62,923 nucleotides of DNA. Origin: a virus. Lineage: Duplodnaviria > Caudoviricetes. Shown here one piece after another: positions 1,476 through 62,923 of this stretch. The stretch is taken from the IMG/VR virus record IMGVR_UViG_3300044626_001587, positions 1 through 62,923 of that record; one strand, written 5' to 3'. The notes under the pieces are model-generated. The model was not told the origin of the DNA, made no database searches, and saw only the letters and a program-made list of their open reading frames with translations. A program made the position numbers and the translations under genes. Each line of letters starts with the position of its first letter. The first letter of the stretch is position 1.

Positions 1476-1564
1476 AAGGAGGGCCTAGGCCCTCCTTCCC
1501 TTTTATGGGGGCCCTGTGGTTCGGAAAAAAAGTTGTTGACTTTTGCTCTGAGATATAGGATCCT
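1476..1564 (+). repeat. cassette junction 4
   Basis: AAGGAGGGCCTAGGCCCTCCTT palindrome; CCCTTTTATGGGGG; TTGACT(1536)-17-GATCCT. Confidence 0.9.
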
Positions 1565-5159: not shown

Positions 5160-6197
5160 TTACCCGAGGAGCCATTTTGGGTTTTTTAGATACCAATCAG
5201 TGATCTCCTTGATTTTAGAAGAGACTGAGGCTTTTGGTTGCCACCCAAGCTCTCTCAAAAGAGATCCATCAAGTCCATACCTCAAATCGTGCCCAGGCCG
5301 TTGTGAATGGAAATCAACCATTTCATACTTCAATGGTAAACCTATTGAATCTGCAATCATGTTCGCTAGATCTAAATTGGATGTTTCTTCTGCACCAACT
5401 AAATTGTAAATTGGAAGACTGACTCCATCTGTGTTTTGTGTCTGAAGGTTTGGTCCTAAATGCTCAATGAACATACAAGCGTCGGAAATACAATCTTGAG
5501 AGATGTAAAACCTTGATCCTGAAACCTTTTTGTCTGGAGAACTGTGAATCTCAACCACCTCGCCTTTCAAAACTTTTTGAATCACTTTTGGAATGAACTT
5601 TTCTGGATGCTGCCTCACACCAAAACAATTCATTGTCCTCGTGATCAATAACGGCAATTTGTACGTGTTGTGATACGCAAAACAAAATTGCTCACCAGCT
5701 GCTTTTGAAGCTGCATACGGATTCAATGGATTCTGCCTACTGTACTCACCATACAACAATTGACCAGGCGCAGGACCAAATACCTCATCTGTTGAGAAAT
5801 ACAAAAACATCTCAAGATCGGAAAGCTCCCTCGAATACTCAAGCAAATTGCAAGTCCCAACCGTGTTGTCCTGAAGAAATTCTAATGGATACAAAATCGA
5901 TCGGTCAACATGCGATTGAGCAGCCAAATGATAAATGATTTGAATGGGACCAATCTGCTCTCGCAATTGCTTTGAAATTGGAGCCTTCAAATCATGATAG
6001 ATGAACTTTACCCTCGATTTCCAATCAATACCAAGCTCCTGAAGCTCACTAAATACCTCACTCAATCGATTCAAATTGCCAGAATGATCCAACCTGTCAA
6101 TCAATACCAAATTGTGGTCTCGATGGAGCAACAAATTCTGAACCAATTTGTGCCCAATGAAACCACTACCACCCGTCACTAAAACATTTTTTGCCAT
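5160..6197 (-). CDS. rmlB: dTDP-glucose 4,6-dehydratase-like NAD-dependent SDR
   Basis: TGGSGFIG, HLAAQSHVDRS, STDEVFG, YAASK, RPGHDLRY motifs. Confidence 0.9.
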   Translation of the reverse strand: MAKNVLVTGGSGFIGHKLVQNLLLHRDHNLVLIDRLDHSGNLNRLSEVFSELQELGIDWKSRVKFIYHDLKAPISKQLREQIGPIQIIYHLAAQSHVDRSILYPLEFLQDNTVGTCNLLEYSRELSDLEMFLYFSTDEVFGPAPGQLLYGEYSRQNPLNPYAASKAAGEQFCFAYHNTYKLPLLITRTMNCFGVRQHPEKFIPKVIQKVLKGEVVEIHSSPDKKVSGSRFYISQDCISDACMFIEHLGPNLQTQNTDGVSLPIYNLVGAEETSNLDLANMIADSIGLPLKYEMVDFHSQRPGHDLRYGLDGSLLRELGWQPKASVSSKIKEITDWYLKNPKWLLG

Positions 6198-12789: not shown

Positions 12790-12902
12790 TGTTCCTCGTA
12801 GTGTAACTAACACGCCTTTTGGAGTTGTGGGTTAGTCACGAAAGTGAGAATCCGACCAGGAACATGTCTATTGTTAGTTACACAAAGAATATAGAAGGAA
12901 CA
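12790..12902 (+). promoter_or_regulatory. structured leader upstream of the SAM decarboxylase gene
   Basis: 12-bp perfect IR 12801-12812/12872-12883; TCAC-GAAA-GTGA; TGTTCCT complementary to two AGGAACA sites. Confidence 0.5.
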
Positions 12903-12908
12903 AGCCAA

Positions 12909-13274
12909 ATGACTGAAAAGTACTGGGGTCTCGAAGCTGTCTTAGACGTTCGGGGCTGCGACCTGTCCAAAGTATCCAATCCTGATGTTATTAGTGAATT
13001 TGCAAAAGAGCTAGTTGTGAGACTAGACATGGAACCATATGGAGAACCTAATGTTGTCCATTTTGGCAAAGAAGAAAAAGCAGGTTGGACTCTTGTTCAA
13101 TTGATCACCACATCCAACATTGTGGCACATTTCAACGATTGCGATGGTTCTTGCTACCTCAATGTTTTTTCATGCAAACATTTTGAACCAGAAACTGTTG
13201 TTCAATGTGTTGAAGACTTCTTTACACCAGAACACATTAGTGTAGCATTTTTAATAAGAAATGCACACGCTTAA
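12909..13274 (+). CDS. speD: S-adenosylmethionine decarboxylase proenzyme
   Basis: WGLEAVLDVRGCD, LITTSNIVAHF cleavage region, YLNVFSCKHF. Confidence 0.85.
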   Translation: MTEKYWGLEAVLDVRGCDLSKVSNPDVISEFAKELVVRLDMEPYGEPNVVHFGKEEKAGWTLVQLITTSNIVAHFNDCDGSCYLNVFSCKHFEPETVVQCVEDFFTPEHISVAFLIRNAHA

Positions 13275-13346: not shown

Positions 13347-15128
13347 ATGTGGTCATTCAAGCAATTTTTAATTGAAATAAAAAGTGTAAAACCTACACCT
13401 ACACCTGAAGAGTACTTGAAAAGCGACCATTATGCTCACTTTTCAGAACTACCAACATTAACAGGTGGTATCAATTTTGCACGGAATTTGATTGAATCAG
13501 TTCGATCAGGGATGGAGTTCCAACCAAAAGGTGACGGCCGAATGGCTGTATACGTTCATCATGATGGAAATGGAAATTACAGTGTTAGTGGTAAAAACTT
13601 CAATAAAAAAGCTACTAATATCAAAGAGCTTGAAGAGCATTATGGCACCGTTGGAAGGGATAAAAAACCAAATCCTTCTTTAGAAGCACTGAAAAAGATT
13701 TTTGAACACCGTGAGGCAGTTTACAATTCAGCAAATGAGGTAAGAGGTCGGCGAGGCGCGGTTCAAGCAGAACTATTATTTGGGCCCGATTCAAAACCAA
13801 CCGAACATCCTGATGGCAAAATTTCTTTTAAAGGAAACATAGTTGAAAACCAATTACAAGGATCAGAAGCGATCCAAGCTAGACGAGCAGAAGCTGGTTT
13901 AGCGATTCACAGCTTTTTTCATGCTGATGATCCTGATAAAAGACAAATTGCAACAGTTGACACCAAAAATTTGCACGAAAATACTAGCAATAAAATATTT
14001 AATATGCATTTAGGTACAGTCTCAGTACCTCACAGTGAGCATATAGATGAAATTCATAAAATTTTATCTACGCCAGAGTTCGAAAGTACCAGCCAAATCC
14101 TCAATCCAATTCATTCCCATTGGATAAAATATTTAAATCATGCAAATGGTATTGGAGATGAATTGTCTGCACATGGTTTTAAAACTTTTCTACAAAGAAG
14201 AGCAAGAATGCCAGCAGGAAAAGCAGAAAATATACCGGCAGCTTTGAAACATATTGACGACAACGTTGAACATGTTGAGACGCACATTTCCCATCATGTG
14301 AAACTACAAAACAGCATAGCTAATTTTGTCGATCAACTTCAACAGCAATATAATCAAAATAATCCAAATCGTCGCCATGTTGTGATTGAGCATAAGACAG
14401 GAATTCCACATGAAGTTTTAGAAGGTTTTACGCCTGCTAGTTCTAATGAATTGTATAATGTTATTAAATTTAACTCATCACAATTTGTGCAAGCAAATAG
14501 ACAAAATCCTACGTTTAGACAACCTACTCATGCTGTAATTACTATTGGTAGATTTACAACCCCAGGCTCGCATTACAAAAATTTGGTAAAACATGTTAAT
14601 GATTATCAGCCTGAAGAAGGTAAAGAGCCTACTTCTCGTGTAGTGTTTGCTTCGTCCAAATATGAACCACAAGCTGGTTCCAAAAGTGCTGGAAAAAACA
14701 GATATCCTTTACCATGGCATTTGAAAAAAGAAATGCTCAAACATATGGTTGGTCCTCATACAGATTTAAGAGAGATGGGAGGAGGAAGAGGCCTTTTCGA
14801 TGTTGTTCGTGAAATAGCTTCTAACCATGATCACGTTCACTTAGTGTTAGGTCAAGAAGATAGTAATAATTTTCAATCTTTAAAAGAAAGACTACGAAAC
14901 GAACCAGATCATGAATTTTTAAATAGAGTACATGTTATAACACGTCCAGGTGAAGAAGGGGTACATAGTACAGCATTAAGAAATGCTGCTTATGAAGGAG
15001 ATTGGGAGACGTACAAAAAAGCTGCTCACCCAAATGTTCCTGAATCTCTTGTAAAACAAATATTTGACATAACAAAACAAAGTTTACAACCTCGTGAATC
15101 TAAACCTAGAAAGAAGAAAAATGATTAA
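13347..15128 (+). CDS. DUF6267-like + cytidylyltransferase-like fusion with capsid-targeting leader
   Basis: MWSFKQFLIE leader; KGDG motif; C-terminal IGRF...STALRNAAYEGDW as in T4-like phage cytidylyltransferases. Confidence 0.65.
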   Translation: MWSFKQFLIEIKSVKPTPTPEEYLKSDHYAHFSELPTLTGGINFARNLIESVRSGMEFQPKGDGRMAVYVHHDGNGNYSVSGKNFNKKATNIKELEEHYGTVGRDKKPNPSLEALKKIFEHREAVYNSANEVRGRRGAVQAELLFGPDSKPTEHPDGKISFKGNIVENQLQGSEAIQARRAEAGLAIHSFFHADDPDKRQIATVDTKNLHENTSNKIFNMHLGTVSVPHSEHIDEIHKILSTPEFESTSQILNPIHSHWIKYLNHANGIGDELSAHGFKTFLQRRARMPAGKAENIPAALKHIDDNVEHVETHISHHVKLQNSIANFVDQLQQQYNQNNPNRRHVVIEHKTGIPHEVLEGFTPASSNELYNVIKFNSSQFVQANRQNPTFRQPTHAVITIGRFTTPGSHYKNLVKHVNDYQPEEGKEPTSRVVFASSKYEPQAGSKSAGKNRYPLPWHLKKEMLKHMVGPHTDLREMGGGRGLFDVVREIASNHDHVHLVLGQEDSNNFQSLKERLRNEPDHEFLNRVHVITRPGEEGVHSTALRNAAYEGDWETYKKAAHPNVPESLVKQIFDITKQSLQPRESKPRKKKND

Positions 15129-48397: not shown

Positions 48398-48583
48398 ATG
48401 AACGATTTTAAATATGATGAGAATACGAAAGTACTGATAAATACAAACAACGAGGCTTATCAGTTGTACAGACAGCTTAGAGACTCAAAAAAACAAAATT
48501 CATTATTCGAAGCAAGATTGTCAAAATTAGAACAACAAGTACAACAGTTAAGAGAGATTGTTAATGGCTCGTCCAGTAAGTAA
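48398..48583 (+). CDS. small coiled-coil protein conserved after VrlC-like genes
   Basis: D..TKVLINTN...Y...coiled coil. Confidence 0.75.
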   Translation: MNDFKYDENTKVLINTNNEAYQLYRQLRDSKKQNSLFEARLSKLEQQVQQLREIVNGSSSK

Positions 48584-51392
48584 CATTAATATTGCAACTG
48601 ATACATGGGCAGCTGCAATTGTTAAAGTTAATGAAATTGCTGATGTTATGTCAACGAATGTTGTAACAACTGCAGCTAACACTTTTGGTGCAACAACAAC
48701 TGGTAATGCATATGTTACTGGTAATTTTTGCGCAAACGTAATAGTTGCTAATGCTGGGTTACGTGGTGGTAACGTTTCGGCTCCAGCTAATTTAACAGTC
48801 ACAACAAATACAATCTTTTCATCAAATTTATGGTTTACTGGTTCTTCAGTAAACAGTACTGCAAATGTTGACCTGAACGCTAATGTTAGAATGACGGGTG
48901 CAACAACAAACGTTGTTGGCACCATTTTTAATGTGTCATCAAACGTAATTTCTTCTGGTGCTAACGTTAGCGTAACAGCTACAAACGTTGCTATAACTTC
49001 AAATACAACATTAGTTGGTAACTTTGGTGTTACAGGAAATATTGCAACTAGTGGTGCAAATGTTAGCGTCACTGCTACGAATGTTGCAATTGCTGCCAAT
49101 ACAACTTTGGTAGGTAACTTTGGTGTTACAGGAAATATTGCAACTAGTGGTGCAAATGTTAGCGTGACTGCTACGAATGTTGCAATCACCTCAAATACAA
49201 CATTGGTTGGTAATTTTGGTGTAACAGGAAATGTTGTAACTAGTGGTGCTAATGTTAGTGTACAAGCAACAAACGTTGCAATTACTTCAAACACAACGTT
49301 AGTTGGCAATTTTGGTGTAACAGGAAATGTTGTAACTAGTGGTGCTAATGTTAGTGTAACTGCAACAAATGTTGCTATAACTTCAAATACAAATGTAACA
49401 GGAATTGTTGGCATCACAGGTAACTTGACTGTAACTAGTACAAACGTTTCTGTATCTGCAACAAATGTTGCAATTACTTCAAATACAACTGTTACCGGTA
49501 ATTTGAACGTAACTGCTCGAGCCACAGTCGATACATTAAATGTTGTAACGACATCACAGCTGCAAGGAGTTACGACAGCTTTTGCAAACGTTGTTCCAAA
49601 TGCAAACAATATAAATTTGGGAGCATCTTCTAATAGATGGATACTTGTTGCAAACTCTGGTGACTTCTCAACCTCCGCTAATGTTGGTACTACGCTAGGT
49701 GTTTCTGGATTAGCAACTCTAACAACGGTCAATGTAACATCAACTGCTGAGATGAGAGGCACTACTACAGCTAATACATTGGTTCCTTTCTCTAATACTA
49801 TCAATCTTGGTAACACAACTAATAGATGGATATTAAGTGCCAATTCTGGCAACTTCTCAACAACTGTTGATGTTACAGGGTTAACTACTTTAGCAACGGT
49901 TAATGTGACCTCGACTGCAGAACTGAGAGGAACTACTACAGCTAATACTTTTGTACCGTTTAGTAATACTATCAATCTTGGTAACACAACAAACAGATGG
50001 GTGTTAATCGCCAATTCTGGCAACTTCTCAACAACTGTTGATGTTACAGGATTAACTACTTTAGCAACGGTTAATGTTACTTCTACAGGAGAGCTGAGGG
50101 GCACTACTACAGCTAATACATTGGTTCCTTTCTCTAATACTATCAACCTTGGTAACACAACTAATAGATGGATTTTGTGGGCCAACACTGGCAGCTTCAG
50201 TTCAACTGTTGTTCCTGTTGGCAATACAATTAATTTAGGTAATACGACCAACAGGTGGGTACTTGTTGCAAACTCTGGTGACTTTTCAACCTCTGCTAAT
50301 GTTGGTACCACATTAGGTGTTTCTGGACTAACAACGTTAGCAACTGTTAATGTAACTTCAACAGCAGAGCTAAGAGGTAATACTACAGCTAATACATTAG
50401 TACCTTTCTCTAGTTCAATCGGTCTTGGTAATACGACCAATAGGTGGGTACTTGTTGCTAACTCTGGTGACTTCTCAACCTCCGCTAATGTTGGCACTAC
50501 ATTAGGTGTTTCTGGATTATCAACTTTAGCGACAGTTAATGTAACTTCAACTGCCGAGCTAAGAGGTACAACGACTGCAAATACATTAGTACCTTTCTCT
50601 AGTTCAATCGGTCTTGGTAATACCACCAATAGGTGGGTGCTGATTGCAAATTCAGGTAACTTTTCGACAACTGTTGATGTTACTGGACTAACAACATTAG
50701 CTACAGTCAATGTGACTTCTACTGCACAACTAAGAAATGGTGCTACAGTATTTAATGAGCTAGCTCCATCTTCTAATTCGATTAACTTAGGTAATACTAC
50801 TAATAGATGGGTAGTTGTTGCTAATAGTGGTAGCTTTACATCTACGGTTGTTCCTGTTGGTAACACAGTTCAATTAGGCAATTCAACCAATAGATGGGTT
50901 TTGACTGCCAATACAGGCGACTTTTCAAGTGATGTGGCCGTTTCAGGTAATTTAAGTATCACTGGAGCAAACGTCAACATCACTTCAAATGTTACTGTTC
51001 AAGGAAATACAACAACTGTACAAAATCTTGTTGTAGGTGGTGCTGCAACTCAAAATACATTTAGTTATGTGCCATTCTCAAATTCAAATTTAGGAACGAA
51101 TACAACAGCAAACGTATTAATTTTCAGTATATCAGATGTTAGTACAAATAGATCTGGTAAACTAACTTTGTGGTTTAGAACAACAGCAAACAATTCACAG
51201 CGAACCGAACTTTGGTTCACCTCAAATACGACCAATATTGATTATTCAGTTGTAGGTACATTGTATACAGGAGCGTCACAACCAGTAACTCTTCTATCAG
51301 CTAATTTGAATGGAACAACAGTAGAAATTTATGGTAGACAAGTCATTCAAAATACATATGTAAAAGGGATCGCTGAGATCGTACGAGGATAA
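48564..51392 (+). CDS. repeat-rich tail fiber / virion protein
   Basis: 32-aa [28 protein letters not shown] repeats, then many [14 protein letters not shown] modules. Confidence 0.85.
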
Positions 51393-51393
51393 A

Positions 51394-53241
51394 ATGCCAG
51401 ACAAGCAGATAGAATTTGATAGTGGTGTAAGGGTTGATGGTACTTTAGACGTTACTAACAATGCCAACGTTGCTGGTAATATGAAAGTAGATGGCGATTT
51501 AGTCGTTGCTGGTACATTAAGTTACAATGGCGTTTCAACAGCTGACTTCGTACCAAGTACAAATAGTTACTCTTTAGGTAATACAACATTTCTTTGGAAT
51601 TTTATTTTCTCCAATAACTTTGTTTCAAACTCATCAACTATTGTTTTTAGAAATCAAACAGTTAACGTTTCTTCCCCTCTAGAAACTAGATCTGTGTTTA
51701 GACCATTTGCTAATGTTATTCCTGATGGAAATACTATTAATCTTGGTAATACGATAAACAGATGGGTTATTGTTGCAAATACTGGTGATTTTAGTGGCGT
51801 GATTACAGCTGGTGCAAACATAGCATTAACTGGAAACATAGTTGGTCCAACGTCTACCTTTACAGGCACAGCAAACAATAGTACTAACTTAGCTGGAAAT
51901 CCTGGTAGTTTTTATACGAATGCTACTAATCTAGCAACAGGAACAGTCCCAACAGCAAGGTTGGGAACAGGCACAGCAAATAGTTCCACTTGGTTGAGAG
52001 GTGATAATACATGGTCTCCTTTAGATAGAGGATATACTGGATCTCAAGGTGTTCAAGGATTTACAGGATCACAAGGCACTCAAGGTTTTACTGGTTCTGT
52101 TGGTTCATCTGGGGCCCAAGGACCTCAAGGTCCTCAAGGATCTATAGGATTTACTGGATCACAAGGTGTTCAAGGGATACAAGGAACTACAGGTCCAACA
52201 GGACCATCAGGTCCAACAGGACCAACTGGTCCTCAAGGTGTTCAAGGTTTTACAGGTTCAGCTGGAGCTCAGGGTAATCCAGGACCAACAGGTCCTGCAG
52301 GTCCAACAGGACCAGTAGGACCTCAAGGAACTACAGGATTTACAGGATCATTAGGAGGTACTGGCCCTACAGGGCCCACGGGTCCAACTGGACCTCAAGG
52401 CAATCCAGGACCAACAGGGCCCACAGGACCAACAGGAGCAACTGGCTTCACAGGATCATTAGGAGGAACTGGCCCTACCGGACCCACAGGTCCAACTGGA
52501 CCTCAAGGCAATCCAGGACCAACAGGTCCAACAGGACCAACAGGAGCAACTGGCTTCACAGGATCATTAGGAGGAACTGGCCCTACCGGACCCACAGGTC
52601 CAACTGGACCTCAAGGCAATCCAGGACCAACAGGTCCAACTGGACCAACAGGTCCAACAGGAGCAACTGGCTTCACAGGATCATTAGGAGGAACTGGCCC
52701 TACCGGACCCACAGGTCCAACTGGACCTCAAGGCAATCCAGGACCAACAGGTCCAACAGGACCAACAGGTCCAACTGGACCAACAGGAGCAACTGGCTTT
52801 ACGGGTTCAGCTGGAGGATTTAGTACAAACTCAGATGCACAGGTAAATTCCCTGGGGGTCGGAACAGCTGGATCTGGAACTGCAGGTGAAATTAGAGCAA
52901 CCAACAATATCACTGCATATTTTTCCTCTGACGAACGTTTAAAAGAAAATATTAAAGTTCTTGAACAAGCTATTATGAAATTACAAGCAGTAGATGGTGT
53001 TTCATTTGACTGGACAGACGAATTTATAAACAAAGCAGGTGGTGAAGATGGCTACTTTGTTAGAAAAAGAGATGTTGGTGTGATAGCTCAACAACTCCAA
53101 AAAGTTCTACCAGAAGCTGTTGGAGAGAGACATGATGGAATTTTGGCTGTAAAATACGAACGAATTGTACCTTTGTTGATTGAGGCAATAAAGGAATTAA
53201 TCGTTAGAGTAGAAAAATTGGAGCAAGCAAATGGCACTTAA
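51394..53241 (+). CDS. collagen-like tail fiber with C-terminal peptidase S74 chaperone
   Basis: long G-X-Y tract (GPT, GFT); [10 protein letters not shown]...GVIAQ...[15 protein letters not shown]. Confidence 0.9.
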
Positions 53242-53779
53242 TTCATCCGGTGTTATTAGTATTGGCGGTTCTACTGTAGGACAATCGATTAATCTAGAAC
53301 TTATTAGATCTGCTACTACCCAATCAAATCTAAATGAATCTGCTCTTAGAACTCTTGCCGGAAAAGCGAGCGGCGCAATAGCACTCAGCGATTTTTATGG
53401 GAAGGGTATAACATTAAACAATCAAACTGTTGTAAGAAGCACAAATTTTGGGACAACGGCTGTTGCTAGTATTACCTATACTACTGGCGGTGACGTTAAT
53501 AGTAGTGTCAGTGGCGATGTCGATGATTGGATTAATCCAAAAGCAGCTGCGTCAAGTAATTATTATATTTCTGCCACAGTTATTAGTTATTCCCCAGACG
53601 AACCATTGGGAAACTTCAACGATTGGGAGGCAATGTCATCAAACCGACAGTGGTCATTATCTCGATCCGGTTTGAATCCTGGTACCTCTGAAGCAGTAAT
53701 TGAGATTTCAATTGGAAATTCGACCGGAAGTGTAGTTTTAGATACCTGTCAAATAACTTTGACGTGTGAAGTAAACTAG
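53231..53779 (+). CDS. tail-associated virion protein
   Basis: MAL..SG.IS...INLEL...LSDFYGK N-terminus commonly follows S74 fibers. Confidence 0.7.
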
Positions 53780-53831
53780 TAAAAACGCTCATGAACACTA
53801 AATAGAGAAAAACATTCTATTTGGTGAAATA

Positions 53832-54164
53832 ATGGCTGCTCAAAAACCAATCTTTATAGATCAAGGAACTACTTTTTATACAGAAGTTCAGGTGTCTGAT
53901 TTAGACTCCGGAGCTCTGTTTGATCTAACAAACTTTTTAGCTAGAGGCTCTCTAAGAAAACATTATGCTTCTTCAAACTCTGTCTCATTTACATGCACGG
54001 TCAACAACGAAATTGGAACAATTTTCTTAACATTAACAGCCAACCAAACATCTCTAATAAAATCAGGTAGATATGTTTACGATGTTGAAATCTATGATGC
54101 AAACAATACTGTTTATAGAATTGTTGAGGGTTTAGTAACGGTTACTCCTGAGGTAACAAAGTAA
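53832..54164 (+). CDS. virion Ig-like adaptor protein
   Basis: IDQGTTF...RKHY.S...GRYVYDVEI...RIVEG.VTVTPEVT. Confidence 0.8.
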   Translation: MAAQKPIFIDQGTTFYTEVQVSDLDSGALFDLTNFLARGSLRKHYASSNSVSFTCTVNNEIGTIFLTLTANQTSLIKSGRYVYDVEIYDANNTVYRIVEGLVTVTPEVTK

Positions 54165-54586
54165 TGACAACACCAAACTTTTCTGTTGCAGTTGGTGGTG
54201 GGTCAAATCCAAGAATTTCAGTTTCAGTAAAAGAAACAGGAACCTCAAACAATGCACAAAATCTTCCTGTTTTCAACAATCAATTTGCTATCATTGATTC
54301 TGTAAACTCTACTTCAATCGTTGCTGCTGCAGCAGCAAACTCAGTCAAGACGGCTTATGATGCTATTAGTAACGTAGCATTTCGAAATACAGCACAAACA
54401 ATTACAGGCTCATGGACATTCAATACAAACATTTACCCAAGCTCGAATGCTGTTTTATTAGGCGCTTCTGAGCAACGTTGGGCTGTGTTTGCAAACACAA
54501 TCAACGCTAGTGGTGACGTTGTTGTTACAGCAAACTTAACAGCCCAACAAATTGTAAACACAGAAATTGACGGTGGCGAGTTTTAA
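54164..54586 (+). CDS. virion protein
   Basis: DSVNSTS...ANSVKTAYD motif, LG...RW module, IDGGEF end. Confidence 0.7.
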   Translation: MTTPNFSVAVGGGSNPRISVSVKETGTSNNAQNLPVFNNQFAIIDSVNSTSIVAAAAANSVKTAYDAISNVAFRNTAQTITGSWTFNTNIYPSSNAVLLGASEQRWAVFANTINASGDVVVTANLTAQQIVNTEIDGGEF

Positions 54587-54588
54587 TA

Positions 54589-57500
54589 TCACGACCTTAA
54601 TCTAAAATGGTAATCGTTATCAACTTGTAAGTTTGTGATTTTAGCAACCATTTCGTAGCCACATTGATCCATAAATTCAAACACCTCCTGTTTGTTAGGA
54701 GCTCCTAAGTTATACTCAATGTTTTGAGCTTCGATAATAATATTTCGACACCCTATTCCTGCTTTCACCTTTTCCATCCCGTTGAGAATATCGAGCTCAG
54801 CCCCTTGACAATCAATTTTAATTAAATCAGGTTCCGGAAAATTCCTCATTTTAACAACACTATCTAAAGAGGAAGCAATTTTCTTTACTTTAGATCCTTC
54901 AGGGGCAAACAATAAATCTGCAGTAGAACTATATTGAACATTCTCTCTGTAGTATGAATTGCCTCCAGGATGATAAAGATTTTGATAAAAATCAATTGTT
55001 TTACCGTTATTGTTATAGCTGGAAAGAACACCTAAATGGTATTGATCAAAACCATTGAGTTTGTATAACATTTCAACTTCTTGCATGGCTTCAAATAAAA
55101 TAATTTTACTATTTGGCCACACTTCTCGAGCAAATTTTGCCCAATGTAATGTACTGCTTCCAATATCGTAAATTACTTTTGGTTCAAACCCTCTACCTTT
55201 CAAAGACCACAAATAATTTTTATGTTCGTTGCATAAAAGGTCCATTTCAGATAATTCAATAAATCTTTTTGTGATCTCCTCATTGTTGACGACAGAGGGT
55301 TTACTAGAACTTACATTTTTTTTTTCTACTCTGTATACTGTTTGACCATGATGATCACAAACAATAGATGTATCGCAGAACAAACTAAATCCTTTTAGTC
55401 TTGCTTTTCTGCAGAAATCTAGATCTTCGCTAAACGTGTGGTTGTGGTCTAATGCTGAGTAATATTTGTAATGAGGATACTCAATAGCTACAAATACTTC
55501 CTTACTAATCAAACAGCATCCCATACCACACCCACCAATCTCAACAAGACTGTTTTCTGGCAAATCTTCATAAACAATTCTTTTGAGATTAAAATCATAA
55601 ATCTCAATATGTTGCTCGAGCAATCTTTGTCTGTAAATACCTGTTACTAACGGTTTGTTATGTTTAACCATCTTTACTAATGTATCAGGAGCAAACACAA
55701 TGTCGTGATCAACAGCAAACAAATAATCAAATCCATTGATCACCCAAGAAGCAATTAGGTTTCGTACTTGGTCAACATTGTATCCATAAAAATATTGAAA
55801 ATGTAGCTCACATCCTTCAGGACATTCAAGATCATAAATTGCCTTGAACGTTTCTGGTTCAATATATCTTGCTGTTGGGATAGCAACTAAAATTTTCTTT
55901 AGATTGTTTTGTTCAGGCAATTCGTCTGCAACAACAGGTGTTGGCAACCGATCAACGCTACGTTGAAGGACTGTTAAACCATTGTTAATAACAGAATGGT
56001 GCTTAATCTTCCACTCTGGATGTTTGATTAAAAAATCAATGATGGCATGAAGTAACCCTTTTTGATGAGTCCCTTGGTTATGGAAATGTTGGTATACTGG
56101 CCATTCAAAATGTGGCTGCCATTCGTATCCAAAAATATGAGTATCATGAACACAAATAAATTTGTTTACTTTAGAATGATGCTTTGCTAGTTCTTTTGAA
56201 AGTTGTTCGTAGCTATGAATGGTATCAATGAACAGCAAATCTGTTTCGTCAATATCAACCAACAATGAGTTGCCTTTGACTGGATCAACAATATACTCAC
56301 AAGGTTTTCCTAACGATTTTGCTACATCAAACAACATTCTAGCTTCAACTGTTTCTTCAATGTCATACGATGTTAGTTTAATGCCTGAGCTAATGAAAGC
56401 CGTAGTAGACCTTCCATGACGAACACCAAATTCTGTAATTGAGTCACACTGCTTTGCAAGTTCAAGCAATTTTGGTAGATGCTCGTTGATGTCACTTGGA
56501 GTGTTTACTTGTTCGTGATACAGTCTCACAATTGGATCATTGTGGTGCTGATCCATTAGAGTCAAAGGGTTTTCTGAGAAATATTTTTCCCAGACTGGCT
56601 TCTCTTTTTCATAAAATCCTCCTGAAATAGAAAGGTCTTTGCATGTTTGGGACATGGGAGAATAGAATTGTATGTTATAAATCAAATAGTTATCCAACCC
56701 TCTTTTCAGGTGGTTGTGGAAAATAAAATCATCACCAAAGTAAATGTCGAGGCCGTCAATGATTGGAACCCAATTTTGCTTGTGCATGAACATTAATTGT
56801 CCAAAGCAATGAATGTTATCTCCAGGTCTCCATTTAATAAAGTCAATAGAATAATCAGTTGTTTCAGGATGGTTAAAATGGTTTTCCCCAGTGATCAATC
56901 CAAATGCACCGTTGTTTGGTGTTATTTTGTATCTCAATCTGTTCAATAGATGTGTGTCAAAATCAATGTCATCATTGATAATACACAGTAAATCATTTCT
57001 TGATTTCTCAACACCAAGATTCCAAGCTGGGTTCACCCTGATGTTGGTAGGTTGATTCAACATCTTAATTTTTGGATGCCAGTTAGAAGTTGGTGTTCTT
57101 TCTACATCGTTGTTAATAATAATGATTTCATCAATCAAAGGGTGATCTTGTAGTTTTGTTAGTACTGTTTCTGTTAGTTCCCAACAGCGCCACATTGTGG
57201 GCATGATAACAGAATACTTTGGGCCACCATCTTCAGTGTTGATTCCATTGTTTAGAACATAGTTTGCATTCATCGTTTGCTCTTCTGAGTTAATTTTGTA
57301 ATCGTTGATTGGGTTTGTATCATTGTAATAGTAAACAACATCCGGACAACAGACAACACTGTCAGGATCTACTTGCTCAATAGTATTGTAAAACACAGCA
57401 TTGTCTCCTCCAGCCCTCATCCATTGTCCATCCCTCATGAAATTTTCATCATCAACTCTGTGCAAATATTTTGCCCTGAACGTTCTCAAGTGAGTATAAG

Positions 57501-59250
57501 GCATATTCCAATTGAACTTGTATTGCCTATATTGCTTTTTTTGTTTAATATCAGGAGGATAAGGTTGAGCAATTAGTGGAATATTATCAACTAACGACCA
57601 CATACTACCATATGTGAATTCAGCACCATTATGGTACATATTGTTGAATTTGTGAAACAATTGTGGATCGTTAACTAGCCAATCATCACCATCGACCAAC
57701 ATGATAATGTCTTGAGAATTGCAATATTCTTTTATTGTATAAACTTGGTTATATACTGCTCCTCTATTTTTATTGTTTGTTATAATTCTTAGTTTATCGT
57801 GTTTGTTTTTTTCAATCACTTGAGCAGTTTGATCTGTGGAACAATCGTTAATGATTATGTGTTCGTAATTTTCATAATCTTGTTGGTAAACTGATTCAAT
57901 ACATTTTTCAATATATTTTTCACTGTTATATGTTGGTGTGATAACAACAATTCGTTGTTGACTGTTTTGTGGCGGTTGTAGTTCTTCCAAATTGTAAAAT
58001 CTTCTTCCAAAGATCTTCCTGCAGTCATGATTGATTTGTTGTACTTTTTTGTATTCTGATAATGGTAGAAATCTTCCTGTCTTGTTATAAAGATGTTGTT
58101 TCCATTGTAAAGCAACAGAATCCCAACCACAAATTTGTTTTACTTGATTGCAAGCATACATTTTTTGTTGATGAAGATACTTTGTACTATGAGCATAACA
58201 GACTGTTTCAACAAACTTTTCTATTTGTTCTGGTTTTTGTAACCATGGAACAGACCAGTTTGGCTCCACTGGATAATTAATTTTATAGGATGCAATGTCT
58301 AAAGCAGTCTCTTCCAACCCTCCAAATCTACAAGTAATGATTGGTACATTGTGAGCAAGAGCTTCTAGTGTTGAGATGCCAAACGTTTCAGGGAATCCGC
58401 AAGGATAAATCATGAAAGAAGCTTGTCTGAGAATTGCTGATATCTCTTGTTGTGAGATAACTCCTAAGAAATCAACATCTGGATGGTCATTAACCATTTG
58501 TCTCCAGTCAAGCTCTTGTTGATCAGGTCCATGATCAGATCTGAACCTATAATAACCTCCAATTACCTTCAACTTTGCATTTGGAATTTTGTCTTTGACT
58601 CTTGGCCAAACATCTTTAACTAAAGGAACCATTCCTTTTGTTACTGATGAGTTGAACACAAACAAATCTGGATCTTTAAGTTTGCAGTCAACCCACCCTG
58701 GATTCATAGCGCCAATACCATTACGGGTTTGAAATATATGGTTTTTTAAAACATCAAAATTACGCCTCCTACCATGATCACAATTTGTGACATAGCTGGT
58801 GTGCCAATCTGTTAATGTGAAGATTTCATTAATTTTTCCTTCCGTAACTAATTGCTCAACAAGTAGGTCACCATCAGAAAATGTGTCATGCATCCAGTAA
58901 ACTTTATAGTTACTGTTTACCTGCATTAATTCAAAATTAACATTTTGATAATCGTGCCGTAGCGGCACTTGTCCTTTTTGACAAAAAGGTGCAACAGATC
59001 TGGATGAGATTACACAATCCCATTGATAATCATTTTCTATTTCTTTTAGAGGTTTGTATACAACACCTTCATAAACACCTGGTCTGCTTTCATCGGAAAA
59101 GCAATCATTGAACACTGTTACAGAAAAACCAAGCTTAACTAGTTGTTTTGTAAGTAAAATTATTGCTGACTCAGACCCTCCAAGACCTCGTTTTGAAAGA
59201 GTGGATCCGTCGTAAGTGAGACCTAATACATCAATAAAGCAAATTTTCAT
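54589..59250 (-). CDS. multidomain glycosyltransferase/methyltransferase (GT4-GT2-GT2-MTase-GT2like-FkbM)
   Basis: GGSE/ETFGISTLEA; ITPTYN..NDCSTD..DGDD; IMPT..NDD; EFGVRHG..FIDT.H; AIPT..DHD..SEDL; DIGS..IKIDCQGAE. Confidence 0.9.
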   Translation of the reverse strand: MKICFIDVLGLTYDGSTLSKRGLGGSESAIILLTKQLVKLGFSVTVFNDCFSDESRPGVYEGVVYKPLKEIENDYQWDCVISSRSVAPFCQKGQVPLRHDYQNVNFELMQVNSNYKVYWMHDTFSDGDLLVEQLVTEGKINEIFTLTDWHTSYVTNCDHGRRRNFDVLKNHIFQTRNGIGAMNPGWVDCKLKDPDLFVFNSSVTKGMVPLVKDVWPRVKDKIPNAKLKVIGGYYRFRSDHGPDQQELDWRQMVNDHPDVDFLGVISQQEISAILRQASFMIYPCGFPETFGISTLEALAHNVPIITCRFGGLEETALDIASYKINYPVEPNWSVPWLQKPEQIEKFVETVCYAHSTKYLHQQKMYACNQVKQICGWDSVALQWKQHLYNKTGRFLPLSEYKKVQQINHDCRKIFGRRFYNLEELQPPQNSQQRIVVITPTYNSEKYIEKCIESVYQQDYENYEHIIINDCSTDQTAQVIEKNKHDKLRIITNNKNRGAVYNQVYTIKEYCNSQDIIMLVDGDDWLVNDPQLFHKFNNMYHNGAEFTYGSMWSLVDNIPLIAQPYPPDIKQKKQYRQYKFNWNMPYTHLRTFRAKYLHRVDDENFMRDGQWMRAGGDNAVFYNTIEQVDPDSVVCCPDVVYYYNDTNPINDYKINSEEQTMNANYVLNNGINTEDGGPKYSVIMPTMWRCWELTETVLTKLQDHPLIDEIIIINNDVERTPTSNWHPKIKMLNQPTNIRVNPAWNLGVEKSRNDLLCIINDDIDFDTHLLNRLRYKITPNNGAFGLITGENHFNHPETTDYSIDFIKWRPGDNIHCFGQLMFMHKQNWVPIIDGLDIYFGDDFIFHNHLKRGLDNYLIYNIQFYSPMSQTCKDLSISGGFYEKEKPVWEKYFSENPLTLMDQHHNDPIVRLYHEQVNTPSDINEHLPKLLELAKQCDSITEFGVRHGRSTTAFISSGIKLTSYDIEETVEARMLFDVAKSLGKPCEYIVDPVKGNSLLVDIDETDLLFIDTIHSYEQLSKELAKHHSKVNKFICVHDTHIFGYEWQPHFEWPVYQHFHNQGTHQKGLLHAIIDFLIKHPEWKIKHHSVINNGLTVLQRSVDRLPTPVVADELPEQNNLKKILVAIPTARYIEPETFKAIYDLECPEGCELHFQYFYGYNVDQVRNLIASWVINGFDYLFAVDHDIVFAPDTLVKMVKHNKPLVTGIYRQRLLEQHIEIYDFNLKRIVYEDLPENSLVEIGGCGMGCCLISKEVFVAIEYPHYKYYSALDHNHTFSEDLDFCRKARLKGFSLFCDTSIVCDHHGQTVYRVEKKNVSSSKPSVVNNEEITKRFIELSEMDLLCNEHKNYLWSLKGRGFEPKVIYDIGSSTLHWAKFAREVWPNSKIILFEAMQEVEMLYKLNGFDQYHLGVLSSYNNNGKTIDFYQNLYHPGGNSYYRENVQYSSTADLLFAPEGSKVKKIASSLDSVVKMRNFPEPDLIKIDCQGAELDILNGMEKVKAGIGCRNIIIEAQNIEYNLGAPNKQEVFEFMDQCGYEMVAKITNLQVDNDYHFRLRS

Positions 59251-59331
59251 ACAATTTTGATTTCATAAATATCGTGATTAAAGACAACTAGATAGTTGCT
59301 AGACTGTGTATATACACTAGAGAGAAGGAAG

Positions 59332-62300
59332 ATGGCCAACAATAAGATTCTTATTAAGCGTACTGCCGTCTCTGGTCGTGTTCCTAATACAACAAGCACA
59401 TCTAACACCCAATATATAGAAGCAGGTGAGCTTGCAATCAACCTGGCTGACAAAAAAGTTTTCACGTCAAACGGCTCAGCTGTATTCGAGGTTGGAGCAA
59501 ACGTTTCACAGTCTTATGTTAATAATTTAACAGTTCAAACTATTTCAGCAAACGGTTCAGTGGGAACTGGAGGTCAAGTTCTTGCATCCGATGGATTCAC
59601 TGTATATTGGACATATAATTTAGGCTACACAGGTTCAATAGGATTCACTGGATCAACTGGCTTCACGGGGTCAACAGGATTCACTGGATCTGAAGGGTTT
59701 ACAGGTTCTAGAGGTTTTACAGGTTCAGAAGGATTCACTGGCTCTAGAGGCTTTACTGGTTCTATTGGATTTACTGGATCGATCGGTTTCACAGGATCAA
59801 TTGGTTTTACTGGATCAATTGGTTTTACGGGTTCTGAAGGTTTTACTGGTTCTAGAGGGTTTACAGGTTCAATTGGTTTTACAGGATCGATTGGTTTTAC
59901 TGGATCAATTGGTTTTACGGGTTCTGAAGGTTTTACTGGGTCAAGAGGGTTCACAGGATCTGAAGGGTTTACTGGATCTAGAGGTTTTACAGGATCAGAG
60001 GGGTTCACTGGATCAGAAGGTTTCACTGGCTCTAGAGGTTTCACAGGATCTGAAGGGTTTACTGGATCTAGAGGCTTTACGGGATCAATTGGTTTCACTG
60101 GTTCAATTGGATTTACAGGGTCGATAGGATTTACAGGATCTATTGGATTTACGGGATCTATTGGTTTTACAGGTTCATGGGGAGGAACAGCCGGTGCTAA
60201 TGTTGATATGGCTGGCTACTCGATTAATAATGCTAATGTAATTAATACTAATGTTTTAAACTCTGGTAATACTACAATCACAGGTTGGGCAAATGTTAGT
60301 GGAGATTTAACAGCTAATACAATAACTTCTCTTGGAAATGTTACAATAGAAGGTGATCTTACAGTTAGTGGTAACACAGTTACAATTGGTGTGACTAATT
60401 TAAAATTAACTGACAATATGATTTATCTTAATGAAGCTGAAGAAGATACTATCACTAGCGCAACATCTAATGGTACAGCCTTCATTTACACAGCAATAAA
60501 TGGGCTTTCTCCTGGAATGATCGTTGATGTTACAGGAGTAACACCTAGTGGATACAATGTCGTAGCTAATGTCGTTACTTTTGCAAACTCATCAACATTT
60601 GCTGTTGCAAATACTAGTTCGCCTGGAGCATACAGTTCTGGAGGGGTAGCTTTTGGTAGAACAGCTATCAACCCTGATTTGGGTTTTGTTGGTGCTTACA
60701 ATGATGGCATTTATAGACATGCTGGTTTGTTTAGAGATGCTACTGATGGATATTTTAAAGTATTTGATCAGTATCAACCTGAACCATCAGGTGCTTTTAT
60801 CAATACAACTGAACCAACATTTAGAATAGCAAACTTTGAAGCAAACAATATTATTGCTAGTAGTGCAAATGTTGGTAATGTTAGTGTTGGTGGTCTCTAT
60901 GCTAATAGTTCTTTTGGTGCTGCTGGCCAAGTACTAGCATCAAATGGTTCTTCAACGTTTTGGACATACAATCTTGGTTATACTGGTTCAATAGGTTTCA
61001 CAGGATCAGAAGGCTTTACAGGGTCAAGAGGCTTTACAGGATCAACAGGATTTACAGGATCCGAAGGCTTTACAGGCTCTAGAGGCTTCACTGGTTCTGA
61101 GGGGTTTACTGGTTCTAGAGGTTTTACAGGGTCAGAGGGCTTCACGGGCTCTAGAGGGTTTACAGGATCAATTGGATTTACAGGGTCCGAAGGCTTTACA
61201 GGTTCTAGAGGCTTCACTGGTTCTGAGGGGTTTACTGGGTCTGAAGGGTTCACTGGCTCTAGAGGGTTTACAGGATCAGAGGGATTCACTGGATCTGAAG
61301 GCTTCACCGGGTCTGAGGGTTATACTGGCTCTAGAGGCTTTACTGGTTCTATAGGTTTCACGGGCTCCATTGGTTTTACTGGGTCAATAGGTTTTACAGG
61401 TTCTATTGGCTTTACAGGATCAATTGGCTTTACAGGCTCTGAAGGCTTTACTGGTTCTAGAGGATTTACTGGGTCAATTGGTTTCACTGGGTCAATTGGT
61501 TTCACTGGTTCAGCTTCAACGCAAGAAGGATACACAGGATCTATTGGATTCACAGGGTCTGAAGGCTTTACTGGTTCTAGAGGGTTTACTGGATCAATTG
61601 GTTTCACAGGGTCAATTGGCTTCACAGGCTCTATTGGTTTCACTGGATCTAGAGGTTTTACTGGGTCTGAGGGTTTTACTGGGTCTGAAGGTTTTACTGG
61701 TTCTAGAGGGTTTACAGGTTCAATTGGTTTTACAGGATCGATTGGATTTACTGGTTCTATTGGTTTTACAGGATCGATTGGATTCACCGGTTCTGCATCA
61801 ACACAAGCTGGCTTCACTGGTTCAATTGGATTTACGGGGTCTATTGGATTCACGGGCTCAATTGGATTCACAGGGTCTGAAGGTTTTACTGGGTCTAGAG
61901 GCTTTACAGGATCTATTGGTTTCACTGGATCAGCTTCAACACAAGCTGGCTTCACAGGTTCTATTGGATTTACTGGGTCTATTGGATTTACTGGGTCTAT
62001 TGGATTTACTGGGTCTATTGGATTTACTGGGTCTATTGGATTTACTGGCTCAGCTTCAACCCAAGCCGGCTTTACTGGTTCAATAGGTTTCACTGGATCA
62101 GCTTCCACTCAAGCTGGCTTTACTGGTTCTAGAGGTTTCACAGGGTCTGAGGGTTTCACTGGTTCTAGAGGTTTTACAGGCTCAATAGGCTTTACTGGTT
62201 CAATTGGTTTTACAGGATCAGCTTCTACTCAAGCCGGCTTTACTGGATCAATTGGATTTACAGGATCTGTAGGATTCACAGGCTCAATTGGTTTTACTGG

Positions 62301-62923
62301 ATCAATTGGATTTACAGGATCTAGAGGGTTCACGGGTTCAATTGGCTTTACAGGTTCGTGGGGTGGAACAGCTGGTGCTAACGTTGACATGGCTGGCTAC
62401 TCAATTAACAATGCAAATGTAATCAACACGAATGTTTTAAACTCTGGTAATACAACAATTACTGGTTGGGCAAACGTTAGTGGAAGTCTTACAGCTAATA
62501 CAATAACTTCACTTGGTAATGTTGTTATCGAAGGTGATTTGACAATTAGTGGTAACACTGTTACTGTGGGCGTTACTAACTTAAAACTAACAGATAACAT
62601 GATCTATTTGAATGAAGCTGAAGAAGATGCTATCACTAATGCAACTTCGAACGGTACTTCTTTCATTTACACAGCTACTAATGGTCTTTCTCCTGGAATG
62701 GTTGTTACGGTTACAGGAGTAACACCTAGTGGATACAATGTCGTAGCTAATGTCGTTACATTTGCAAACTCATCAACATTTGCTGTTGCAAACACATCAT
62801 CACCAGGTACATACGTATCTGGTGGTACTGCTTTTGGTAGATCCGCAACCAATCCTGACTTAGGTGTAGTTGGTGCATATGATGACGGTACGTATAGACA
62901 TGCAGGTATATTCAGAGATGCTA
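59332..62923 (+). CDS. long collagen-like tail fiber (partial, runs off the window)
   Basis: AAGGA RBS; MANNKILIKR...GELAINLAD; no stop seen in the frame where read; GFTGSx repeats; absent from the track presumably because it has no stop. Confidence 0.85.
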   Translation, partial: MANNKILIKRTAVSGRVPNTTSTSNTQYIEAGELAINLADKKVFTSNGSAVFEVGANVSQSYVNNLTVQTISANGSVGTGGQVLASDGFTVYWTYNLGYTGSIGFTGSTGFTGSTGFTGSEGFTGSRGFTGSEGFTGSRGFTGSIGFTGSIGFTGSIGFTGSIGFTGSEGFTGSRGFTGSIGFTGSIGFTGSIGFTGSEGFTGSRGFTGSEGFTGSRGFTGSEGFTGSEGFTGSRGFTGSEGFTGSRGFTGSIGFTGSIGFTGSIGFTGSIGFTGSIGFTGSWGGTAGANVDMAGYSINNANVINTNVLNSGNTTITGWANVSGDLTANTITSLGNVTIEGDLTVSGNTVTIGVTNLKLTDNMIYLNEAEEDTITSATSNGTAFIYTAINGLSPGMIVDVTGVTPSGYNVVANVVTFANSSTFAVANTSSPGAYSSGGVAFGRTAINPDLGFVGAYNDGIYRHAGLFRDATDGYFKVFDQYQPEPSGAFINTTEPTFRIANFEANNIIASSANVGNVSVGGLYANSSFGAAGQVLASNGSSTFWTYNLGYTGSIGFTGSEGFTGSRGFTGSTGFTGSEGFTGSRGFTGSEGFTGSRGFTGSEGFTGSRGFTGSIGFTGSEGFTGSRGFTGSEGFTGSEGFTGSRGFTGSEGFTGSEGFTGSEGYTGSRGFTGSIGFTGSIGFTGSIGFTGSIGFTGSIGFTGSEGFTGSRGFTGSIGFTGSIGFTGSASTQEGYTGSIGFTGSEGFTGSRGFTGSIGFTGSIGFTGSIGFTGSRGFTGSEGFTGSEGFTGSRGFTGSIGFTGSIGFTGSIGFTGSIGFTGSASTQAGFTGSIGFTGSIGFTGSIGFTGSEGFTGSRGFTGSIGFTGSASTQAGFTGSIGFTGSIGFTGSIGFTGSIGFTGSIGFTGSASTQAGFTGSIGFTGSASTQAGFTGSRGFTGSEGFTGSRGFTGSIGFTGSIGFTGSASTQAGFTGSIGFTGSVGFTGSIGFTGSIGFTGSRGFTGSIGFTGSWGGTAGANVDMAGYSINNANVINTNVLNSGNTTITGWANVSGSLTANTITSLGNVVIEGDLTISGNTVTVGVTNLKLTDNMIYLNEAEEDAITNATSNGTSFIYTATNGLSPGMVVTVTGVTPSGYNVVANVVTFANSSTFAVANTSSPGTYVSGGTAFGRSATNPDLGVVGAYDDGTYRHAGIFRDA
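59623..62358 (+). repeat. two blocks of 18-bp GFTGSx codon repeats
   Basis: about 59623-60177 and 60976-62358; each followed by a duplicated globular domain (about 60178-60745 and 62359-end). Confidence 0.9.

Follow-up and report, generated by a model that had tools for sequence, protein, structure and literature searches.

The stretch of DNA analysed here (hereafter the window) is the whole of the IMG/VR virus record IMGVR_UViG_3300044626_001587, 62,923 bases in length and with an estimated completeness of ~37%, and by its gene content is a fragment of a T4-like myovirus. Its tail-fibre cluster contains, in inverted orientation, a 1553-amino-acid (aa) open reading frame (ORF) predicted to combine four glycosyltransferase (GT) and two methyltransferase domains, which lies head-to-head with a large collagen-like fibre gene (Table 1). 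A first-pass annotation, made from the sequence alone, had suggested that this single polypeptide builds a methylated oligosaccharide on the phage fibres. We find that the enzyme belongs to a family which, as far as database searches tell, is essentially phage-borne, and that gene order at related loci marks the enzyme and fibre genes as a conserved genetic unit; the fibre is tentatively favoured as the acceptor, with a host envelope glycan as the main rival.

Table 1. Coordinates of the six-domain enzyme, its domains, the fibre module and the other sugar-related genes of the window.
Feature	Position	Strand	Evidence
Six-domain glycosyltransferase/methyltransferase, 1553 aa	54589..59250	-	ATG-started ORF, Pfam, NCBIfam, PHROGs, AlphaFold2 and fold searches
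D1, GT4	residues ~1-410		Pfam span 204-316
D2, GT2	residues ~425-665		Pfam Glycos_transf_2 span 436-598, E 7.7e-31
D3, GT2	residues ~675-900		Glycos_transf_2 28.2 bits against a cut-off of 23.3 (residues 660-901 scanned alone)
D4, class I O-methyltransferase fold	residues ~905-1110
D5, GT-A, A197-like	residues ~1115-1310		Anp1 below Pfam cut-off; two PHROG glycosyltransferase-type families
D6, FkbM methyltransferase	residues ~1320-1553		Pfam span 1371-1534
Divergent intergenic region, 81 bp	59251..59331		sequence; alignment with 14 related intergenic regions
GFTGS collagen-like tail fibre, 3' end open at contig end	59332..62922	+	Pfam Collagen E 2.6e-89, PHROG tail-fibre families
GPT-rich collagen-like fibre, 615 aa	51394..53241	+	Pfam Collagen E 1.8e-36; C-terminal Peptidase_S74 intramolecular chaperone domain; PHROGs
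Thr/Asn-rich repeat fibre, 944 aa, 19.6% Thr, non-collagen	48558..51392	+	translation, composition
Three small fibre-module ORFs, 182, 110 and 140 aa	53231..54586	+	PHROG phrog_1084 and phrog_3304, Pfam
Separate GT4 glycosyltransferase, 338 aa	21326..22342	+	Pfam Glycos_transf_1 E 1.1e-14; phrog_2170
RmlB-like short-chain dehydrogenase/reductase (SDR), NDP-sugar 4,6-dehydratase/epimerase	5160..6197	-	Pfam GDP_Man_Dehyd E 5.7e-44, Epimerase E 1.5e-42

Domain anatomy and relatives of the enzyme

Pfam and fold searches bear out the presence of four GT-like and two methyltransferase-like domains in the 1553-aa ORF, and this count is therefore considered correct from the domain, fold and motif evidence together. 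From the N-terminus, the order is GT4 (GT-B), GT2, GT2, class I O-methyltransferase, A197-like GT-A and FkbM methyltransferase. The enzyme was modelled by AlphaFold2 in two parts (residues 1-900 and 901-1553; mean pLDDT 87.4 and 86.6 respectively) using alignments of 40 and 30 sequences.

The first domain, D1, scored above the cut-offs of both PF00534 Glycos_transf_1 (45.9 bits; cut-off 26.4) and PF13692 Glyco_trans_1_4 (48.1 bits; cut-off 27), and its model adopts a GT-B fold for which Foldseek returned MshA (3c4q, TMt 0.69), PimA (2gej, TMt 0.71), WaaG and BshA. Both glutamates of the motif E288-x7-E296, the E-x7-E expected of GT4 GT-B enzymes, are invariant in the 40 aligned sequences, as is the DGDD stretch (residues 520-523) of D2. 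The D2-D3 part forms a tandem GT-A structure similar to heparosan synthase 2 and K4 chondroitin polymerase (K4CP; 8vh8, 2z86). In NCBIfam and PHROG, D2 comes nearest to enzymes of polysaccharide synthesis (TuaG, PgaC, WcaA and a GtrB-like family), all of them far below their own cut-offs, and its nucleotide-binding half matches the PHROG 'GtrB-like O-antigen conversion' (phrog_841, E 1.1e-11).

When residues 902-1115 were scanned alone, D4 stayed below the cut-offs of PF13578 Methyltransf_24 (19.9 bits; cut-off 26.3) and PF04989 RMNT_CmcI (18.3 bits; cut-off 23.2), while its fold is that of a class I cation-dependent-type, CCoAOMT-like O-methyltransferase (8c9v; Z 18.7, root-mean-square deviation (rmsd) 2.8, 166 residues aligned), with the sugar methyltransferase MeT1 (Z 16.8) and the rhamnosyl 4'-O-methyltransferase SpnH (Z 15.2) as further matches; for this reason we name it by its fold and not as a member of a Pfam family. 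The clear best fold match of D5 is STIV A197 (2c0n_A; Z 19.2, rmsd 2.2, 165 of 191 residues aligned, 18% identity), followed by Mnn9 (Z 15.6), LH3 (Z 15.5) and Mimivirus R699 (Z 15.4), and Foldseek also returned human COLGALT1 (E ~2e-8). A197 has no defined sequence family in the libraries used, the likeness of D5 resting on the fold, and the resemblance of the D5 model to collagen-modifying GT-A enzymes is taken as a lead only. The D5 motif D1181-H-D1183 is invariant in the 30 sequences, in which the YDIG stretch of D6 is also invariant or near-invariant. D6 scored above cut-off with both PF05050 (49.9 bits; cut-off 22.7) and TIGR01444 (51.3 bits; cut-off 37.7). The closest predicted viral structure to this domain (encoded at 54592-55290) is a Moumouvirus FkbM family protein (TMt 0.94, rmsd 1.6, 37% identity), a hint that phages and giant viruses exchange modules for sugar methylation.

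No membrane segment was detected in the enzyme, in which no 19-residue window reaches a Kyte-Doolittle mean of 1.6 (highest 1.59), and the scanned ORFs of the window, itself ~37% of the genome, revealed neither a flippase nor an ABC transporter, a polymerase or a priming transferase for lipid carriers. Sequence and models describe a soluble six-transferase polypeptide with conserved catalytic-type motifs. From this anatomy, the proposal of a single-polypeptide line producing a methylated oligosaccharide is judged right, and we infer that its product is a short chain of this kind.

Relatives of the enzyme are numerous, with 969 cluster representatives (854-2718 aa) matching the whole protein at E <= 0.001, the best being 41-62% identical, and 1527 proteins (374-1190 aa), in a list that partly overlaps the former, matching the GT4-GT2 core alone. 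Family members carry generic names only (e.g. 'FkbM family methyltransferase'). In IMG/VR, 155 stretches encode a relative, of which 80 (L001-L080) were analysed. Among 50,697 cultured-phage records no close relative was found; 24 records matched, with D1 only ~22-24% identical and a best single-domain match of 41%. A pattern search that finds close relatives only, made over one genome from each of 185,579 prokaryotic species, returned two loci: a 201,532-base contig in a Cellvibrionaceae metagenome-assembled genome (MAG; locus L083) and a 2.9-kb contig in a Luminiphilus MAG (L084). The 18 kb read of L083 contain a collagen fibre, ORFs of 182 and 113 aa (equated with those of the window by position and size, not by sequence), an inverted enzyme gene and a large collagen fibre, and this contig is probably that of a phage binned with a bacterium. 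By these searches the family appears to be essentially phage-borne, and almost only in uncultured phages. Both loci from the prokaryote collection come from MAGs of marine Cellvibrionales, a weak hint at the hosts of some family members.

When the ORFs of each locus were compared by blast with the six domains, GT4-GT2 (~680 aa) was present at every locus and was followed by D5, with or without D6, so that the family core consists of GT4-GT2 plus a D5-type GT-A. The D5(-D6) part is mostly a separate gene, whose start overlaps the GT4-GT2 stop by four bases (e.g. at L041, 9998-13281), and is fused in the window and some other loci, while D3, D4 and extra copies of D1, D3 or D6 have been gained, lost or reordered between relatives. 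The 120 best full-length homologues display at least 20 architectures: 52 have D1-D2-D3 followed by D5-D6, 32 have a duplicated D1, and 10 share the exact six-domain order of the window. Some homologues in the family contain an extra GT25 domain (PF01755). The split and fused loci read as natural steps of gene fusion and fission, accompanied by shuffling of domains, and such variety is the pattern expected for a glycan under diversifying selection.

The divergent fibre gene and its surroundings

The enzyme gene is inverted within the fibre cluster, 81 bp head-to-head with the GFTGS fibre gene as first described, provided that the latter starts at ATG 59332, a start preceded by a purine-rich stretch and preferred here to the mechanical ORF start (TTG 59296). 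To follow this arrangement across relatives, the 80 loci were dereplicated at 90% identity over the core, yielding 36 clusters, 35 of them with an upstream ORF, and an ORF with at least 10 G-X-Y triplets was counted as collagen-like. In 32 of the 35 clusters the first ORF upstream runs in the opposite direction, and in 19 it is collagen-like, compared with 57 of the 323 genes in the flanks as a whole; five more clusters have their collagen-like ORF in second or third place upstream. The N-terminal motif K-R-[ST]-x(2-4)-[GD]-x(1-3)-P, found in the window fibre within its conserved N-terminus MANNKILIKRTAVSGRVPNTT, occurs in 22/35 neighbours, and the neighbour is collagen-like or motif-bearing in 28/35. 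Somewhere in the examined flanks, a collagen-like ORF is found in 29 of the 36 clusters, the other seven having a flank of at most 8.6 kb. The pairing persists even though the enzymes of these relatives are only 52-62% identical to that of the window.

As a rough control (not dereplicated, and possibly of other lineages), 24 loci sharing the N-terminal module of the 182-aa protein were inspected, of which four had a collagen-like ORF and none the GT4-GT2 core, a single weak D5 match (23% identity) being the nearest approach. An anchor for a lineage-matched control was sought in the 858-aa structural protein, which returned only five distant loci. A search of IMG/VR for relatives of the fibre globular domain (60181-60930) gave 57 pattern matches, 0 of them confirmed. 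Because of the neighbour counts across clusters, we regard the enzyme-fibre link as real and the pair, as far as gene order can tell, as a conserved genetic unit.

The region between the two genes is itself alignable across loci whose enzymes are ~60% identical. From the fibre start codon towards the enzyme, the conserved order is a palindrome (AGATATATATCT), an inverted repeat (CAACTATTTAGTTG) whose end forms TTGACA, and TATAAT, which at the loci with spacing checked lies 16-17 bases beyond TTGACA and ~8-9 bases before the enzyme ATG. A late-type TATAAATA facing the fibre, which we take to be the T4-type late promoter consensus, is the opposite-strand reading of the same bases and overlaps the sigma-70-like site back to back. 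The related regions with conserved elements include those of L018, L022, L024, L028, L039, L041, L047, L048, L057 and L069; the core of the first palindrome was found in 16/35 clusters and the second inverted repeat in 14/35. In the window, the gap contains diverged local versions of these elements, i.e. a late-type CATAAATA in the fibre sense (59264-59271), the inverted repeat CAACTATCTAGTTG and the palindrome GTGTATATACAC, with a best sigma-70 match towards the enzyme of 8/12 and no late motif in the enzyme sense. A sigma-70 and terminator scan of 53000-60000 gave fewer promoter-like sites than shuffled sequences, and none in the 81-bp gap.

Both collagen-like fibres are rich in threonine, as had been noted, with Thr at the Y position in 59% of the 88 triplets of the GPT fibre and 52% of the 206 triplets of the GFTGS fibre, and structural proteins across the fibre module are Thr-rich in general. 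The lysine content of the window fibres is 0.6-1.8%. A large internal duplication marks the GFTGS fibre, giving it two copies each of a segment resembling the N-terminus, of a collagen block and of a globular domain that begins WGGTAGANVDMAGYSINN; each of the two collagen blocks is followed by the globular domain, the second copy of which runs past the contig end. The 944-aa repeat fibre is another possible acceptor if fibres are glycosylated. Antisense to its gene, a 772-aa open frame (48548-50866, minus strand) was rejected as a gene since it looks like a by-product of the repeat codon composition.

Of the three small proteins encoded between the GPT fibre and the enzyme, that of 110 aa matches a tail-fibre assembly family and that of 140 aa matches Phage_fiber_2 weakly; the last of these ORFs ends two nucleotides from the stop codon of the convergent enzyme gene. 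The N-terminal ~58-70 residues of the 182-aa protein (53231-53404) are common to 23 of 24 other IMG/VR loci (51-79% identity), the remaining locus matching nearly the whole protein at 37% identity, and we take this shared segment for a probable attachment module that can be exchanged.

Among the 47 window proteins covered by the PHROG scan are baseplate hub and wedge types (gp5, gp6, gp7, gp8, gp25, gp48 and gp53) together with a tail tube, a head closure protein, a DNA end protector, PhoH, Hsp20 and an S-adenosylmethionine decarboxylase. The G+C content of the window is ~33-46%. No cultured phage has a gp6-like wedge protein more than 38.8% identical to that of the window, the closest being that of Caulobacter phage Cr30, followed by those of Sinorhizobium, Methylophilales and Synechococcus phages. 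Megablast of 40000-62923 against cultured phages found no near-identical DNA, only a 377-bp match of 72% identity in two records.

Outside the fibre module, the previously reported GT4 at 21326 is indeed present, and may act in the same pathway as the six-domain enzyme. The enzyme at 5160 described as RmlB-like is an SDR 4,6-dehydratase/epimerase as claimed, but its score of 225 bits with the dTDP-glucose 4,6-dehydratase model TIGR01181 lies below the equivalog cut-off of 365.1; it may supply a 6-deoxyhexose donor. A 593-aa ORF (13347-15128), adjoining the S-adenosylmethionine decarboxylase gene (12819-13274), has an N-terminal DUF6267 and a PHROG 'cytidyltransferase' match at residues 392-586, by which it might serve in sugar or polyol activation.

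The cultured Synechococcus cyanophage S-CAM7 (L114, NC_031927.1, 66-13813) has a sugar cluster directly upstream of a collagen-like tail fibre, comprising two nucleotide-sugar epimerases, an aminotransferase, GT11, GT8-like and LicD-like proteins, an adenylylsulfate kinase and a GT25, with a second collagen-repeat protein downstream. The GT beside its collagen fibre was rejected as a relative of our enzyme, being dissimilar (best E 3.9) and a GT25, the family to which collagen galactosyltransferases belong. S-CAM7 is thus an independent case of GT genes beside collagen-like fibres.

Candidate acceptors of the glycan

O-glycosylation of the fibres by the enzyme is the reading we lean towards, tentatively and at somewhat less than an even chance. 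A soluble cytoplasmic multi-enzyme would assemble a short O-methylated oligosaccharide from nucleotide sugars and S-adenosylmethionine, the N-terminal GT4 (a retaining GT-B), or the GT2 fused to it, starting the chain on Thr/Ser hydroxyls of the phage's own fibres, the remaining GT-A domains extending it and the two methyltransferase domains capping sugar hydroxyls. Chief among the targets would be the collagen-like fibre of the divergent gene, glycosylated before it trimerises or as it does so, and the shuffled or optional domains of the relatives would give each phage lineage a different fibre glycan. Of this scheme, the donors, the order of action and the acceptor are the parts that we infer. 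The fibre is favoured as acceptor because the homologous partner is mostly a collagen-like fibre, the enzyme is predicted to reside in the cytoplasm, the site of fibre folding, with no membrane or export component accompanying it, and close functional precedents exist; having no membrane segment, and with no flippase, polymerase or priming transferase seen in the scanned ORFs, the enzyme would meet the fibre proteins in the cytoplasm.

Several observations weigh against this. Over a stretch reaching from 100 bases ahead of the enzyme start to base 12 of its ORF, a sigma-70-like match of at least 11/12 precedes the enzyme in 11 of the 35 clusters (12/12 in five), and the late-type TATAAATA occurs in the fibre sense in 25 and in the enzyme sense in six; because the promoter types differ by sense, enzyme and fibre are possibly expressed at different times, and these consensus matches, if real, suggest an enzyme made early from a nearly leaderless transcript and a fibre made late, from overlapping back-to-back promoters. 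Nor are the cluster counts independent events, since the phages are related and synteny is partly inherited. High threonine is not specific to the fibre beside the enzyme (median 10.9% in neighbouring fibres vs 10.3% in other flank ORFs). The collagen repeats of the window fibre match fibres of cultured cyanophages, S-CAM7 and S-CRM01 among them (40-46% identity over the repeat region), no annotated GT lies within 9 kb of the collagen fibres of S-CRM01, and such fibres do not need this enzyme, because cultured phages have them without a close relative of it. Soluble GT4/GT2 enzymes with terminal methyltransferases are, moreover, typical of O-polysaccharide synthesis at the cytoplasmic face (e.g. 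WbdA/WbdD of E. coli O9a), and a receptor-modifying enzyme linked to a receptor-binding protein would give the same synteny.

These last points describe the main rival, in which the enzyme would act at the cytoplasmic face on a lipid-linked O-antigen, capsule, lipopolysaccharide (LPS)-core or S-layer-glycan intermediate and add a methyl-capped side chain or terminator, so masking the receptor of the fibre on infected cells and their debris. Superinfection would be excluded and progeny spared futile adsorption, and linkage to the fibre gene would keep the binding and masking specificities together. We consider this a serious contender, nearly as likely as fibre glycosylation. It accounts for the linkage to a receptor-binding gene equally well; the presumably early sigma-70-like promoters suit it better; and it agrees with a neighbouring fibre that is not unusually Thr-rich and with similar fibres in cultured phages that have no close relative of the enzyme. 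The resemblance of D2, far below cut-off, and of D2-D3 to polysaccharide enzymes and polymerases points the same way, and the diversity of architectures recalls that of O-antigens. Modification of the host O-chain or cell surface is also how comparable phage GTs are read in passages of PMC7029224, on those in the tail-fibre hypervariable region of pelagimyophages and cyanomyophages, and of PMC12801897, on the 13 GTs of cyanophage S-SCSM2R. Against a host glycan, the enzyme has no membrane segment, and nothing among the scanned ORFs looks like a flippase, an ABC transporter, a polymerase or a priming transferase, although the window is only ~37% of the genome and host functions could serve. It offers no reason for the excess of collagen-like partners (19/35 vs 57/323), and near-absence from cellular genomes, albeit in a pattern search limited to close relatives, would be unusual for recruits from O-antigen clusters.

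DNA hypermodification, in which the GTs would glycosylate hydroxymethylated bases and the methyltransferases modify the sugars for protection from restriction, appears, from the ~37% of the genome in the window, very improbable, because of the gene position and the domain types. DNA glucosylation is classically known from T4-like phages, and an early function of this sort would agree with the sigma-70-like promoters of relatives. As a marker of hydroxymethylated bases we used PF00303, the thymidylate-synthase family that includes dCMP hydroxymethylase. A gene of this family (348.6 bits) was found on contig C10, perhaps that of L083 itself, of the assembly containing L083; this sole PF00303 match scores like an ordinary thymidylate synthase, and none of the four related viral records, 41-63% complete, has one. 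The enzyme gene sits inside a fibre module with its nearest upstream gene divergent in 32/35 clusters; to our knowledge, FkbM and CCoAOMT-like O-methyltransferases are not DNA-glycan enzymes; and solved DNA glucosyltransferases are not among the fold matches listed, a weak argument. A passage of PMC12619734 cites virus GTs that make multi-sugar DNA glycans. Improbable too, though less so, is that the product is a free or lipid-bound methylated oligo- or polysaccharide, or decorates the capsid, sheath or baseplate, with the fibre gene a mere positional neighbour. The likeness of D4 to MeT1 of the mycobacterial methylmannose polysaccharide pathway, that of D1 to the methylmannose polysaccharide mannosyltransferase 7qsg, and the Thr-rich structural proteins throughout the module would agree with it, but the divergent pairing and shared regulatory region are conserved and no independent support for it was found.

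Were O-glycosylation of the fibres correct, a bolder generalisation could be framed, namely that aquatic T4-like phages routinely O-glycosylate their collagen-like fibres via a shufflable phage-specific cassette (a core of GT4-GT2 and an A197-like GT-A with optional GT2, CCoAOMT-like and FkbM domains), co-regulated through a palindrome-bearing region and yielding a diversifying methylated coat, the host-O-antigen reading of 'LPS genes' being wrong for this family. As a whole we regard this as unlikely, if worth stating. In the main texts of the literature searched we found no paper proposing virion glycosylation for T4-like phages or for tail fibres, nor one describing the fused family. Only very few phages have been shown to glycosylate their virions with enzymes of their own. 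Should the fibres be the acceptors, predicting host range from the fibre sequence by itself would overlook a layer, the collagen-like fibres of phages would stand beside BclA as prokaryotic-type collagens that are glycosylated, and the 'LPS genes' of phage hypervariable regions would call for another reading; such a glycan coat would be a second, non-protein layer of host-range or stability determinants that evolves alongside the fibre sequence. If instead a host glycan is the acceptor, the family would amount to a receptor-masking system, widespread in lytic phages and linked to their fibre genes. In both cases the six-domain enzyme would be a compact natural cassette for methylated oligosaccharides.

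Comparison with known glycan machineries

Gtr-type conversion of O-antigen uses a membrane-bound GtrB, a GtrA flippase and a type-specific membrane GT; our enzyme differs in having no transmembrane segments, and neither a GtrA nor a type-specific Gtr was seen among the 47 window proteins scanned. The multi-domain GT4/GT2 enzymes and terminating methyltransferase of E. coli O9a (WbdA/WbdD) come closer in composition, and some phages link modifying enzymes to tailspike or fibre genes. The enzyme lacks, however, the kinase domain of WbdD, and its family is nearly confined to phage contigs.

Among collagen-modifying GTs, COLGALT1, LH3 and Mimivirus R699 are fold matches of the D5 GT-A, some homologues of the enzyme contain GT25 (PF01755), and Mimivirus L230 is described in a passage of PMC9614988 as glucosylating viral collagen-like proteins. 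These enzymes act on hydroxylysine, whereas the window fibres are poor in lysine and the scanned ORFs yielded no lysyl hydroxylase; the Z-scores of D5 with them are also in the range of many unrelated GT-A enzymes (Mnn9, 15.6), the best being that with A197 (19.2). BclA of Bacillus anthracis, whose collagen-like region carries dense O-linked GalNAc-Rha3-anthrose chains (passage in PMC10050317), is similar in being a trimeric collagen-like filament whose prokaryotic collagen-like repeats are glycosylated by cytoplasmic bacterial-type machinery, but is a cellular spore protein served by enzymes encoded in separate genes.

We know of no multi-domain fusion and no methyltransferases in the virion-glycosylation system of mycobacteriophages. 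Its GTs (Che8-type genes) resemble our case in decorating the phage's own structural proteins, and a Che8 glycosyltransferase is a distant fold match of the enzyme (rank 42, E 7.9e-9). The glycans, cited in PMC12619734 as attached to the C-termini of capsid and tail-tube subunits, are not on fibres, and the phages are siphoviruses of actinobacteria rather than a T4-like myovirus. As in virion-glycosylation systems, the GT genes studied here are conserved beside a candidate acceptor gene, which is divergent in 32/35 clusters and collagen-like or motif-bearing in 28/35.

The nearest parallel is A064R of PBCV-1 (638 aa), which according to a passage of PMC9614988 consists of a GT-A rhamnosyltransferase, a second rhamnosyltransferase and a methyltransferase dependent on S-adenosylmethionine, builds the methylated end of the capsid-protein N-glycan, and is called rare in having three transferase domains in one protein. 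Both are virus-encoded soluble strings of GT domains with a methyltransferase. A064R domain 1 is not among the fold matches listed for the enzyme, and the parallel drawn is one of architecture. The window enzyme comes from a bacteriophage and has six domains instead of three, with two methyltransferases of different families and a GT-B GT4 start absent from A064R. By analogy, it may work as A064R does, with twice as many domains and a GT-B to start the chain. What is new here is a variant of known virus-encoded glycan machinery in which the coupling of enzyme and fibre is stronger than first described.

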